Assembly (NCBI GenBank): GCA_945952225.1
Contig: CAMFHP010000008.1
Coordinates: forward strand, 1-64,000
Direction of reading: 5' to 3'
DNA: 64,000 nucleotides
Source: an uncultured Myxococcaceae bacterium
Lineage (GTDB): Bacteria > Myxococcota_A > Polyangia > Polyangiales > Ga0077539
The stretch's first letter is position 1; each line of letters opens with the position of its first letter. The notes under the pieces were generated by a model. That model had not been told where the DNA came from. It was given only the letters and a program-made list of their open reading frames with translations, and made no database searches. Of the stretch, positions 43,769-48,596 are shown piece by piece. The translations under genes were made by a program, and so were the position numbers.

Positions 43769-44064
43769 GGCGATGGCCGATCCTTCGGGCGTGGAGGGGT
43801 GACGCGAGGCCCGCTTCGATCCGTACGGGCGCGCTGCACGTCGACGTGACGTGGAGCGCGTCGGACCGACGAGGCGCGCGGTGCCTTGGCAAGTTCGCGC
43901 AGCACGTGGCCGAGATGCCCGCCGAAGTGTTGCCCGTGATCGACCCGCGTCGCGACACTTCCCGACGACCGGATGCGGGAGATCACGGCGTGCTCAAGGC
44001 GCGCGGTCATCCCGCCGAGAGGAGCCTCTCGGAAGCGCCGGTTGCGGCGCACTTCGGGAGATCC

Positions 44065-44289
44065 ATGCGAACGAACGCGGTCGAGCACGTGGTGGCGATG
44101 GTGTCGGCGGTGGCCCTCGTGGCGGTGGCCGCCGTGGTGGTGCTGCGAGCGCCGTTGGCGCAGGGCGCGGCCCGTCACGCAGGGCGCCCGCACACGCCCG
44201 GCGTGGTGGAGCGGGCGCAGACGACCGCGTGTTCGGCGCGGTGCGCGGCGGGCCTCGAAGCGTGCCTCGCGCGGTGCGCGCTCCGTTGA
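44065..44289 (+). CDS. Small membrane-anchored Cys-rich hypothetical protein (74 aa)
   Basis: Internal ATG preceded by GGGAGA. One TM helix (VVAMVSAVALVAVAAVVVL) then TACSARCAAGLEACLARCA (CxxxC-x7-CxxxC). It sits inside the 640-nt region upstream of the sigma-54 activator. Weak. Confidence 0.25.
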   Translation: MRTNAVEHVVAMVSAVALVAVAAVVVLRAPLAQGAARHAGRPHTPGVVERAQTTACSARCAAGLEACLARCALR

Positions 44290-44408
44290 ACAGGTGAAAC
44301 TGTCGCGTCGCGCGGAGATCGGTCGAAGGTTTCTCCGGTTCGCGGTCATACACCGTGCAGGACGTTGCGCGGCCCGCGCAGCGCAGCCCCCACGACGAAC
44401 GAGACGCC

Positions 44409-45811: not shown

Positions 45812-47338
45812 ATGCTTCCGGCCAGCACCTCGCTCCAGCCCAACGCCACCCTCGCGGGACGCTACCGCGTCATCCGCCTGCTCGGTGAAGGCGGCATGGG
45901 CGCGGTGTACGAGGCCGAGCACATGATGATCGGGCGCCGCGTCGCGCTGAAGATGCTGCACCCGAAGTACTGCGTGCAGCACGAGGCCGTCGTTCGCTTC
46001 ACCCGCGAGGCGCGCGCGGCCGCGGCCATCGGGCACGAGAACATCGTCGACGTGACCGACTTCGGCACCCACGAGGGCCAGCCCTTCCTCGTGATGGAGC
46101 TCCTGCGCGGCACGACGCTCGACGAGCTCATGGTGAACCACGATGTGTTCGAGCTCCCGCGGGCGGCGAACATCGTCGGACACGTGCTCTCGGCCCTCGC
46201 CGCGGCGCACGCGGTGGGCATCGTGCATCGCGACCTCAAGCCCGAGAACCTCTACCTCGTCGAGCAGAACGGACGCTCCGTGGTGAAGGTGCTCGACTTC
46301 GGCATCTCGAAGTTCCAGGCGCAGTCCGACAACCTGCACACGACCGAGGAGGGCGCGATGCTCGGCACGCCGAGCTACATGTCGCCCGAACAGTGGCTCA
46401 GCGTCCGCGACATCGACCACCGCGCGGACCTCTTCGCCGTCGGCGTTCTGCTCTACGAGATGCTCACGGGCTGCCTGCCCTACGAGGGCGTGAGCCGCGG
46501 CGAGCTGATGCTCCAGGTGGTGACCGGCACCGAGCCGCCCGAGCCCGCCTCGTCGATCAACGACGCCCTCCCGACGGAGCTCGACGCCGTGCTCGCGAAG
46601 GCCGTCGCGCGGGCCCGCGAAGACCGCTACCAGACCGCGCAGGAGTTTCTCGACGCGCTCCGTCCCTTCGGCGCGCACGACATCTCGGTCACCGACGCGG
46701 CCCCCTCGTCGCTCGCGGCGGCGAACACGTCGGAGAGCCTCCCCGATGCGGTGCGGCTGCTCACCGAGGCAGAGGGCGCGCGCCCCGATGCGCGCAACGT
46801 CCCGACGCTCACCGACGAACGCGACGTCACCCCGCCGCCCACGCTCATCCCGCCGCCGATCTGGAAGAGCCCCACCGCGCTCCTCGCCGCAGCGGGCCTC
46901 ATCGCGGCCGTGACGGGCATGATCCTCCTCCTGCGCGGCCCCTCGCGACCGACGGAGCTCGTGCCCCCGCCGCGCCCCGTGGTGCGCCCCGCGGCCCTCG
47001 TCGACGCGGCCGTCGCCGCCGCGCCGCAACGGCCCGCGCAGGTGCGCATCACGCTCCAAGGCGCGCCGCCCGATGCGTCGGTGACCTTCGACGACCGCGC
47101 GGTGCCGGGCTCTGAAATCGTGATCGACCGCGACACGCGCGAACACACGTTGGTGATCGCGGCCGCGGGGGCCGAGCGGCGACTCGCCGTGCGCGGTGAC
47201 ACCGATCAGGTGCTGTTGATCGAGATGCCGCCTCCTCCGCGGGTCGTTCGGGCGCCCGGGACGACGCAAGGCTCGCGCAACGGCGCGCCCCCGCACCGGG
47301 GACGACGACACGGTCTCGACATCAACCGCCGGTTCTGA
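45812..47338 (+). CDS. Membrane Ser/Thr protein kinase with an extracellular PEGA-like domain
   Basis: LLGEGGMGAVYEAEH (Gly loop), VALK, HRDLKPEN, DFGISK and SPE motifs. Then a TM helix (LLAAAGLIAAVTGMILLL) and a C-terminal QVRITLQGAPPDASVTFDDRAV beta-rich segment. Confidence 0.85.
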   Translation: MLPASTSLQPNATLAGRYRVIRLLGEGGMGAVYEAEHMMIGRRVALKMLHPKYCVQHEAVVRFTREARAAAAIGHENIVDVTDFGTHEGQPFLVMELLRGTTLDELMVNHDVFELPRAANIVGHVLSALAAAHAVGIVHRDLKPENLYLVEQNGRSVVKVLDFGISKFQAQSDNLHTTEEGAMLGTPSYMSPEQWLSVRDIDHRADLFAVGVLLYEMLTGCLPYEGVSRGELMLQVVTGTEPPEPASSINDALPTELDAVLAKAVARAREDRYQTAQEFLDALRPFGAHDISVTDAAPSSLAAANTSESLPDAVRLLTEAEGARPDARNVPTLTDERDVTPPPTLIPPPIWKSPTALLAAAGLIAAVTGMILLLRGPSRPTELVPPPRPVVRPAALVDAAVAAAPQRPAQVRITLQGAPPDASVTFDDRAVPGSEIVIDRDTREHTLVIAAAGAERRLAVRGDTDQVLLIEMPPPPRVVRAPGTTQGSRNGAPPHRGRRHGLDINRRF

Positions 47339-47393
47339 CACGTAGTGGGCACCGCGGCGTCGGGGGGACCCGACACGCGCATGGCGCCACACG

Positions 47394-48596
47394 ATGCTTC
47401 ACCGTTCCAGCCGTCTCCGCGTTGCCCTCCTCGCGTCGTGCACGTGTGTGCTGTGGGGTGGTGCGACGAACGCGCAGCCCGCGCCGCAGACGACGCCCAC
47501 CGCCGCCCAGGTCGCCGAAGGTCGAGAGCATTTCGACCGCGGAATCAGGCTCTTCGACGAGTCGAACTTCGATGGCGCGCTCGTGGAGTTCCAGCGCGCG
47601 TGGGACCTCTCGCAGCGCTCCTCGGTGCTCACGAACATCGCCGCGGCCTGTCAGGCCCTGCACCGTTACGCCGACGCCATCGCGGCCCTCGAGCGCTACC
47701 TCACCGTGTCGACCGACGCGCGCCAGCGACGACAGGTGCAGCGCGCGATCGAGGAGCTCCGGGAGCTCATCGCCTACGTGCGTGTGACGGTGGTGCCCGC
47801 CGACGCGCAGGTGCGCCTCGACGCGCGCTCCATCGATGCCTCGCAGGAGGTGCTCGTCGGCCCCGGCACGCACCACATCGAGGCGACGCACGCGGGCCGC
47901 GTGGCCGCCTCGGCAGATTTCACCATCGCCTCGGGCGAGCACCGCGAGGTGCGCCTCACCCTCGCGGAGACCGCAGGCGGCACCACCGGACCGACGGTGC
48001 TCATCGTCGACCCCGCGAACCCGCCGCCCCCGCCGCCTCCGCCGCCCCCGCCTCCACCGTCCACGATCGCGGTCGACGGCGTTCCCTCGAACGCCACGCT
48101 GCGCCTCGACGGCGTGCCCATGGTGCTCGACGGACGCCCGCTCACCGTGGCCCCCGGCGCCCATCGCGTCGAGATCTCGGCCCCCGGCATGCGCCCGTGG
48201 AGTGGGCCCATCACAGCCCGCGCGCAGGCGTCGCACCGCCTCCACGTGTCGCTCTCGCCCGCGACCACGGGAATGCGCCCGATCTACTTCATCGCCGCGG
48301 CTTCGGCGACGGGCGTGTTCCTCATCGCGACGGTGGCGACGGGGCTCTCGGCCATCAGCACGCACTCGGAGTACATGTCGCTCGCGCCCGGCGATCCGCG
48401 CATCGCGACGCTCGGCTCCGAGGGGCGCGCGCTCTCCATCGCGTCCGACCTCCTGGGTCTCGGCACCCTCGGACTCGGCGCGCTCTCCGTGGTGCTCTTC
48501 ACCCGCACGTCGTTTCACAACGAGCCCTCGTCGGCGCGCTTCGTTCTCGCGCCGACCGCGGGCGGCGCCACCGCGGGCGCGACCTTCACGTTCTGA
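47394..48596 (+). CDS. Secreted TPR-like / PEGA-domain protein with a 14-Pro linker and a C-terminal TM
   Basis: Signal peptide. TPR-like N-terminus (EGREHFDRGIRLFDESNFDGALVEFQRAWDL). PEGA-like segment (YVRVTVVPADAQVRLDARSI...HHIEATHAG). [15 protein letters not shown]-terminal hydrophobic segment. Confidence 0.55.
   Translation: MLHRSSRLRVALLASCTCVLWGGATNAQPAPQTTPTAAQVAEGREHFDRGIRLFDESNFDGALVEFQRAWDLSQRSSVLTNIAAACQALHRYADAIAALERYLTVSTDARQRRQVQRAIEELRELIAYVRVTVVPADAQVRLDARSIDASQEVLVGPGTHHIEATHAGRVAASADFTIASGEHREVRLTLAETAGGTTGPTVLIVDPANPPPPPPPPPPPPPSTIAVDGVPSNATLRLDGVPMVLDGRPLTVAPGAHRVEISAPGMRPWSGPITARAQASHRLHVSLSPATTGMRPIYFIAAASATGVFLIATVATGLSAISTHSEYMSLAPGDPRIATLGSEGRALSIASDLLGLGTLGLGALSVVLFTRTSFHNEPSSARFVLAPTAGGATAGATFTF

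Follow-up and report, generated by a model that had tools for sequence, protein, structure and literature searches.

We studied a regulatory cluster in a 64,000-nt stretch of DNA from an uncultured Myxococcaceae bacterium (hereafter the window), in which the gene of a regulator with FHA, AAA+ and HTH_8 domains is followed by the genes of a membrane Ser/Thr kinase and a PEGA protein. A first-pass annotation had described the regulator as an FHA sigma-54 activator. The FHA/AAA+/HTH_8 architecture stood up to analysis, but the L1 loop with its GAFTGA motif was found deleted and the L2 loop trimmed. Without this loop, through which it would contact sigma-54, the supposed activator is probably a DNA-binding regulator under kinase control that acts at ordinary promoters. 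We read it as an FHA-gated atypical enhancer-binding protein (EBP) of a conserved Polyangiales envelope-signalling operon, no longer dependent on sigma-54, and place the probability of this reading at roughly 0.6. The wider proposal, that in a whole clade of uncultured Polyangiales an FHA-gated activator with a GarA-like TDTS motif has gone from dependence on sigma-54 to independence of it, is more tentative and falls somewhat short of even odds.

Loss of the sigma-54 contact loops

The window had a G+C content of 72%, which made lists of open reading frames (ORFs) noisy; genes were mapped via third-position G+C (GC3). Searches with Pfam and for motifs confirmed the annotated gene content (FHA regulator, membrane Ser/Thr kinase and PEGA protein). 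In the regulator, Pfam matched FHA (PF00498, E 1.3e-15), Sigma54_activat (PF00158, E 6.5e-36), AAA_lid_14 and HTH_8, and its features were located as follows:

44409-45686, + strand: regulator FHA/AAA+/HTH_8, 425 aa (Pfam, alignments)
Residues 4-7, nt 44418-44429, + strand: TDTS motif (family alignment)
Residues 39-112, + strand: FHA domain (Pfam)
Residues 136-286, + strand: EBP-type AAA+ domain (Pfam)
D199/N200, nt 45003-45008, + strand: junction of the L1/GAFTGA deletion (alignment)
Residues 240-248, nt 45126-45152, + strand: L2 loop, shortened by 5 residues (alignment)
Residues 374-413, nt 45528-45647, + strand: HTH_8 (Pfam)

The phmmer alignments with ZraR, NifA and FleQ (E values to 3e-58) opened a gap of 10+1 residues in the regulator exactly over ELFGHEKGAFTGA (LFGHEKGAFTG), so that the GAFTGA loop, on whose integrity the earlier assignment depended, proved to be deleted. 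The same references showed a second gap, of 3+2 residues, in the pre-sensor-I (L2) loop, which was shorter by 5 residues than in 64/64 aligned relatives. The distance between Walker A and Walker B was 57 residues as compared with 68 in canonical relatives, and a regular-expression search of the regulator found neither G[AS][FY][TS]G[AG] nor ELFG. Walker A (GETGSGKE), Walker B (LLLDE), the arginine fingers (FREDLYFR) and sensor II (GNVREL) were all intact. The residues of the FHA domain that bind phosphothreonine were also present (G45-R46, S60-R-T-H63 and N82); G45, R46, S60, R61, S80 and N82 were invariant across 54 homologues and H63 was nearly so.

The AlphaFold2 model of the regulator had a mean predicted local distance difference test (pLDDT) score of 88 and a normal EBP AAA+ fold, with a short low-confidence linker at the position expected for the L1 hairpin and pLDDT below 50 at residues 242-246. 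Its top fold matches were NtrX, which lacks GAFTGA, and ZraR, and its AAA+ fold gave TM-scores of ~0.75-0.79 to the AAA+ domains of FleQ, FlrC and NtrC1. Seven contigs carried an identical regulator protein, and the three places retrieved each belonged to a sample of its own, which rules out an assembly error as the source of the deletion. With an EBP-type AAA+ domain and an HTH domain in the absence of GAFTGA, the protein fits by its sequence the definition of an atypical EBP homologue.

A classical sigma-54 activator would assemble as a hexamer on an enhancer and open a neighbouring -24/-12 promoter by ATP hydrolysis. We consider this very unlikely for the window regulator, in spite of its strong Sigma54_activat match, AAA lid and HTH_8, its intact ATPase motifs and the public annotation of its relatives as 'sigma 54-interacting': the whole of L1/GAFTGA is deleted and L2 is shortened, and GAFTGA is the contact with sigma-54 in which single substitutions abolish activation, as established for PspF and NtrC. 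The gaps of the cluster also had no -24/-12 site (see below). Read from the alignments, the loop deletion is the decisive evidence against the sigma-54 reading.

Search for sigma-54 promoters

The window was scanned for TGGCAC-N5-TTGCW with up to 2 mismatches. In the whole window there were 8 matches, against 15.2 +/- 4.3 expected, and the intergenic gaps of the cluster held no -24/-12 promoter at that threshold, which leaves room for distant targets. The best site in these gaps that kept the GG-N10-GC core matched 7/11 positions. A weak sigma-54-like element (TGGCA-N-CGCA) had been proposed at 43887-43901; its GG-to-GC spacing is 11 instead of 12, and it fails the GG-N10-GC core. The sigma-54 promoters that the first-pass annotation anticipated near the cluster genes were thus not found in the cluster gaps. 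In the related loci described below, the sole intergenic 9/11 match was TGGTGC-N5-TTGCT at L014:4482-4497 (+ strand), ~33 nt 5' of a small ORF that separates the giant from the VWA gene in that locus.

Loop loss among relatives and conservation of the operon

We compared the best 120 homologues of the regulator (numbered with P) and grouped them via a neighbour-joining tree. P0001 to P0015, with the exception of P0011, formed one group, all of whose members lacked GAFTGA. The lesions varied within this clade, from substitutions that preserved the loop length (P0008) to deletions of 1, 3, 4, 9, 11 and 12-13 residues. The sister sequence P0011 and most of the more distant relatives kept G[AS]F[TS]GA. 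Identity of the HTH domain to that of the window regulator was 88-100% within the loop-less clade versus 68-82% in the loop-bearing relatives, and the FHA and AAA+ cores were 53-74% identical (53-78% with the lid), for an overall identity of 57-69% within the clade. This pattern of HTH and core identity does not fit a pseudogene, and it suggests that DNA binding by the regulator is under strong constraint. In a survey of 150 cluster representatives (50% identity), several of which could not be classified by regular expression, clear loss of L1 elsewhere was rare (P0243, P0325 and P0066).

Seven distinct related loci (numbered with L), in metagenome-assembled genomes (MAGs) labelled Polyangiales, Myxococcota or Deltaproteobacteria and all uncultured, had a common gene order: VWA, Cys-rich, FHA regulator, lipoprotein, kinase, TPR/PEGA and p299/p320. 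The secreted VWA protein of these loci had 366-413 aa, and the small Cys-rich gene was present in some of them only. Kinase homology was found 3' of the regulator in 6/7 GAFTGA-less loci (L004/5, L011, L013, L014, L006 and L009), with an interrupted kinase ORF in L011; L012 held no regulator, which was thus present in 6/7 loci. Orthologues of the 400-aa TPR/PEGA protein came after the kinase in all the related loci.

The kinase followed the regulator likewise in the loop-bearing distant relatives L008 and L022, and L023 had a 449-aa unannotated gene at the kinase position. Of the proteins with intact GSFTGA, P0016 and P0026 were followed by a Ser/Thr kinase and P0023 by an unannotated gene; a TPR protein came after the gene at the kinase position for P0026 and P0023, that of P0026 being a homologue of the window 400-aa protein. 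Because GSFTGA-bearing relatives also have a kinase or a gene at its position, the pairing of FHA regulator and kinase is ancestral and the decay of L1 secondary.

In a comparison with L005, L006, L011, L013 and L014, two genes of the related loci were missing from the window lineage: the 366-413-aa VWA gene 5' of the regulator and the lipoprotein gene between regulator and kinase. The lost lipoprotein has 119-146 aa in the relatives, and its version in the distant L008 is Stig1-like and Cys-rich. Such losses bear on the possibility that the loop deletions record the pseudogenisation of a redundant regulator with no function, as do the facts that no other regulator of the clade is as reduced as that of the window and that in two relatives a Walker motif is altered, Walker A in P0005 (GK to GR) and Walker B in P0004 (DE to DA). 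A decaying gene is nevertheless extremely improbable, given an intact reading frame with GC3 of 0.90-0.92, the conservation of core, lid and above all HTH given above, and an operon order kept in 7/7 related loci.

The homologue P0017 (locus L007) was a paralogue of the FHA-EBP type, 56% identical, that kept GAFTGA and had no kinase next to it. It came from the same metagenome sample (ERZ12289976) as L002, a contig nearly identical to the window sequence, and adjoined EutN/CcmL and radical-SAM/SPASM genes. With such a paralogue at hand, the window regulator might act as an anti-activator or poison subunit that forms mixed rings with it, or competes with it for enhancer sites, and so damps a sigma-54 regulon; the determinants of oligomerisation and ATP binding that this would call for are kept. 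The HTH domains of the two proteins are only 78% identical, however, against 88-100% within the loop-less clade, which suggests a distinct DNA specificity for the window regulator. In addition, P0017 comes from the same sample but not necessarily from the same genome, and neither locus shows a sigma-54 promoter nearby, so we hold this explanation to be unlikely.

Kinase, envelope protein and putative signal input

The protein encoded 3' of the regulator was a Hanks-type kinase (Pkinase PF00069, E 2.9e-44) with all of the motifs GEGGMG, VALK, HRDLKPEN, DFG and SPE. It consisted of a cytoplasmic kinase domain, one transmembrane segment (residues 353-377) and an extracytoplasmic PEGA-like beta domain. 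Its C-terminus (nt 47312-47335) read GLDINRRF; GLDINR-x-F was invariant in six orthologues, preceded by an Arg/Gly-rich stretch. The next protein, of 400 aa, had a signal peptide, TPR repeats, two PEGA-like beta domains joined via a poly-Pro linker, and C-terminal hydrophobic anchors. Its TPR matches were below the Pfam cut-offs (best TPR_2, 18.7 vs 27).

PEGA-like extracellular domains had been noted in both proteins. In the 400-aa protein Pfam gave a marginal PEGA match (residues 223-289, 21.1 bits vs a cut-off of 20.8), but the window kinase had no match to PEGA (PF08308) at E <= 1. Among the kinase orthologues the family was matched in 1/6 (E 0.018), and the L005 sequence read VPEGATITLDG. 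In a profile-profile comparison by hhalign, the conserved kinase ectodomain aligned with the first beta domain of its 400-aa neighbour at 85% and E 6e-6.

In the regulator family (R/H/Q)TDTS was nearly invariant, lying 14-20 residues N-terminal to the first strand of the FHA domain, and the best PDB matches to the regulator FHA domain included GarA, among them its pThr22 form. From the likeness of TDTS to the ETTS motif of GarA (see below) and from these FHA matches, we infer that the kinase phosphorylates T4/T6. The first-pass annotation had proposed the FHA regulator as a substrate or partner of the adjacent kinase; synteny, the intact phosphothreonine-binding residues and TDTS support the partnership, and regulator and kinase are likely to be partners.

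Organization of the locus and its intergenic DNA

The other features of the locus were:

35568-39608, - strand: giant A, VIT/TPR secreted protein, 1346 aa; possible co-regulated neighbour
39605-43768, - strand: giant B, FecR/VIT/VWA/TPR, 1387 aa, divergent from the regulatory operon (Pfam)
43769-44064, no strand: true divergent intergenic region, 296 nt, from giant B to the small Cys-rich gene
44065-44289, + strand: small Cys-rich gene, 74 aa (G+C at the three codon positions; alignment with relatives)
44290-44408, no strand: gap 5' of the regulator, 119 nt (gene map)
45812-47338, + strand: Hanks-type Ser/Thr kinase, one-pass membrane protein, 508 aa (Pfam, motifs)
47394-48596, + strand: TPR/PEGA envelope protein, 400 aa (Pfam)
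48659-49558, + strand: p299, last gene of the module, beyond the coordinates of the first-pass annotation; conserved

The distance of 640 nt between the ATG of giant B (43768, - strand) and that of the regulator (44409) was confirmed. The stretch had been called non-coding and unusually long. It holds, in fact, a gene of 74 aa at 44065-44289, the small Cys-rich ORF already seen in the first pass. From 43820 to 44200 one + frame showed the coding pattern of the genome (G+C high at first codon positions, low at second and ~0.9 at third), and the output of a public gene caller had a gene of 99 aa here (43990-44289). The ATG at 44065, which opens the 74-aa ORF, is preceded by GGGAGA. The encoded protein had an N-terminal hydrophobic signal or transmembrane-like stretch (residues 3-36) and a C-terminal twin Cx3C motif (ACSARC-x6-CLARC). 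It aligned with ORFs of 106 aa and 10 Cys that occupy the corresponding place in L006, L009 and L014, sharing with them M-TM-GVVxRAQxxACxxRC, where TM is the transmembrane-like stretch; L013 had a similar short ORF with 4 Cys, which was read by eye only and neither aligned nor scored. By its sequence the 74-aa protein is a short form of the 106-aa, 10-Cys protein of the relatives, predicted to be secreted or membrane-bound, and a periplasmic redox or structural role is possible. The twin Cx3C (4 Cys in the window and 10 in the 106-aa form, L006:9617-9937) recalls disulfide-stapled helical hairpins.

Since the 74-aa ORF is coding and has homologues, the true intergenic gaps are of 296 and 119 nt, lengths ordinary for a divergent promoter region; others of 310-473 nt occur elsewhere in the window, as taken from a crude gene map. 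A tblastn search for a remnant of the relatives' VWA gene in 43769-44064 gave a best E of 0.17, and this candidate was rejected. In the 119-nt gap, a block with TCGAAG (44323-44328) and GGTCATA (44344-44350) was common to L005, L011 and L013; it is weak evidence because only four sequences were aligned, two of them nearly identical. A scan of 43700-45900 against Rfam produced a chance-level match only, and no family.

A perfect hairpin with an 8-bp stem had been described at 44015-44032. The 8-bp inverted repeat is real, but it reads CCGAGAGG-AG-CCTCTCGG, with a 2-nt loop in place of the annotated 'agc'. Such a repeat is expected in ~34% of random 640-nt sequences of the same composition; it was not in any orthologous locus, and outside the window its occurrence was limited to the near-identical contigs L001-L003. 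We rejected it as a regulatory element because it neither exceeds chance expectation nor is conserved. It lies in the leader that precedes the small gene. The leader (43995-44064) had a folding z of -2.1 relative to shuffles, a property that was not conserved, and its outer stem covers the GGGAG Shine-Dalgarno sequence of the small gene.

Giants A and B are paralogues, with ~35% identity in the N-terminal 750 residues and ~37-39% in the C-terminal 350-445 residues, and the two ORFs have 4 nt in common. Note that in L003:5186-9360 (ERZ22353474; equivalent to window 39605-43768) giant B was split by the gene call into ORFs of 438 aa and 953 aa, and the length differed by 11 nt; the cause is a frameshift allele or else an error of assembly.

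The product of p299 was modelled by AlphaFold2 at pLDDT 92.6 as a predicted glycoside-hydrolase-like TIM barrel. Its best PDB folds were the C-terminal poly-N-acetylglucosamine hydrolase domain of PgaB and GH164 (E 4e-7, TM-score ~0.5), and it had 398 homologues and no Pfam family. The homologue in Sorangium cellulosum and Chondromyces crocatus adjoins a glycosyltransferase and a PP2C phosphatase, with Wzy_C and Poly_export within ~4.5 kb in Chondromyces only. This context hints that the output of the module is related to exopolysaccharide. Genes associated with type VI secretion were seen near the module (Tox-PAAR-like and DUF2169, L006:138-2551) and near a p299 homologue (DUF2169 and two VgrG, L020:14703-20981), maybe by coincidence.

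Candidate operator and the divergent giants

A 13-nt motif, GCACGTYGACGTG, had exactly two matches in the 64 kb of the window, against 0.02 expected from shuffles:

43836-43848, + strand: GCACGTCGACGTG, candidate operator copy 1, with a perfect 12-bp palindrome inside, in the gap between giant B and the small gene
45718-45730, + strand: GCACGTTGACGTG, candidate operator copy 2, within GCACGT-TG-ACGTGC

Copy 2 lies 32 nt past the stop codon of the regulator and 82 nt before the ATG of the kinase. In the relatives, near matches to the motif fall, by coordinate, inside coding sequence, and a search for palindromic operators shared among the orthologous intergenic regions found none. As an operator the motif is a lead and a candidate only.

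The first-pass annotation had named the divergent VWA giants as candidate targets of the regulator. VIT/VWA giants were divergent upstream in 5/7 related loci; orthologues of giant B were divergent from the operon in L005, L011, L013 and L014 and not in L006 or L009, and an orthologue of giant A was adjacent in L005. This synteny, together with the one shared 13-nt motif, weakly favours the giants as targets of the regulator. The pair of GCACGTYGACGTG sites is the only feature at the level of sequence that would speak for their co-regulation.

Proposed mechanism

For an FHA-gated regulator independent of sigma-54, we propose the following scheme. The membrane kinase would sense an envelope or extracellular cue via its PEGA-like ectodomain, and the TPR/PEGA protein and the small Cys-rich protein would probably join in sensing it. 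The kinase would autophosphorylate and then probably phosphorylate Thr4/Thr6 in the TDTS motif of the regulator. The FHA domain would bind the phosphothreonine either in cis, as a GarA-like switch, or in trans, and this binding would alter both DNA binding and the oligomerisation mediated by the AAA+ domain. The regulator would then repress or activate sigma-A-type promoters, candidates being those of its own operon and of the divergent giants.

Several points weigh against this reading. No target promoter or operator was identified with confidence. A scan for terminators and the sigma-70 consensus found neither, the 296-nt divergent region included, although this consensus suits myxobacterial DNA of 72% G+C poorly. 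The pattern GCACGTYGACGTG was set after its sites had been noticed, and it was not conserved in orthologous intergenic DNA despite nearly identical HTH domains. The sigma-54 scan of 10 related loci gave nothing convincing, even beside the GAFTGA-bearing relatives; for this reason the lack of a local -24/-12 site in the window is weak, non-discriminating evidence, and a test of the co-evolution of promoter and loop is uninformative. Phosphorylation of TDTS and the interaction of FHA domain and kinase are both suggested by analogy and synteny only. Finally, the lineage is uncultured.

If the wider proposal for the clade is true, its graded L1 series (0, 1, 3, 4, 9 and 11-13 missing residues) would be a natural record of the rewiring from sigma-54 to sigma-A, in which the kinase and TPR envelope-sensor genes were retained and the other accessory genes vary. 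The window regulator would then be the first atypical EBP switched by a Ser/Thr-kinase/FHA phospho-relay with a GarA-like TDTS in place of a receiver domain. The label 'sigma 54-interacting transcriptional regulator' is probably wrong for this clade, and predictions of sigma-54 regulons in Polyangiales MAGs would accordingly be inflated.

Comparison with known systems

NtrC, NtrX, VpsR and TyrR are regulators with receiver or ACT/PAS input domains. Atypical EBPs without GAFTGA include NtrC of R. capsulatus and Caulobacter, NtrX, VpsR, TyrR, PhhR, HupR and HsfA of M. xanthus, and they act as activators or repressors at sigma-70 promoters (bioRxiv 10.1101/2023.06.06.543975; PMC6158489). The NtrC proteins of R. 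capsulatus and Caulobacter crescentus resemble the window regulator in a deletion that spans GAFTGA, in their Walker motifs and in a Fis-type HTH (bioRxiv 10.1101/2023.06.06.543975). Their input is a receiver domain phosphorylated on Asp by a histidine kinase, whereas that of the window regulator is an FHA domain with a Hanks-type kinase; in addition, the window deletion is independent of theirs and of another size, and L2 is trimmed too. NtrX of Brucella abortus and VpsR of Vibrio cholerae, both GAFTGA-less, are a repressor and a sigma-70 activator, respectively (PMC6158489). They also lack GAFTGA like the window regulator but have receiver inputs unlike its FHA domain, and Walker B is degenerate in VpsR whereas the window regulator keeps its DE.

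The wiring of FHA-type EBPs to Ser/Thr kinases is familiar from myxobacteria, and the FHA-domain NtrC-like activators of Myxococcus xanthus of Jelsbak, Givskov and Kaiser (2005) are reportedly sigma-54-dependent and carry the loop. They have the same FHA/AAA+/HTH architecture and proposed kinase wiring, but the window clade lacks the loop. The GAFTGA-bearing relatives P0016, P0023 and P0026 appear to fit the M. xanthus class. PexR, a GAF-EBP of M. xanthus, was discarded as a comparable case, since it has GAFTGA and is sigma-54 dependent. In the searchable literature no paper paired GAFTGA with FHA, and no EBP homologue that is gated by an FHA domain, linked to a kinase and devoid of the sigma-54 loop came to light.

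Another known type is the vWA / Ser-Thr kinase / FHA (/PP2C) operon, of which the PpkA-Fha1-PppA pathway of P. aeruginosa is an example. The DRA0331-0334 module of Deinococcus radiodurans is reported as another (bioRxiv 10.64898/2026.01.23.701218). As in these operons, the genes of a Hanks kinase, an FHA protein and a secreted VWA protein stand together in one operon in the relatives of the window; the differences are that this operon has no PP2C and that its FHA protein is a DNA-binding AAA+ regulator. In the window itself the small VWA gene is gone and only the divergent VIT/VWA giants are left.

GarA and OdhI are mycobacterial and corynebacterial FHA proteins whose phosphorylated N-terminal ETTS motif binds their own FHA domain. 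The regulator family resembles them in having the Thr-rich acidic TDTS shortly N-terminal to the FHA domain. GarA, however, controls metabolic enzymes as an FHA protein on its own, whereas the FHA domain of the window regulator is fused to AAA+ and HTH domains and its TDTS switch is putative; the conserved TDTS offers a testable hypothesis of a phospho-switch. Each of the two principles involved is known; new would be their combination, in a lineage that is uncultured. The clade would represent a natural series of an AAA+ activator freed from sigma-54 with signal input and DNA binding kept, and it would extend the GAFTGA-less atypical EBPs to input from a Ser/Thr kinase and an FHA domain.

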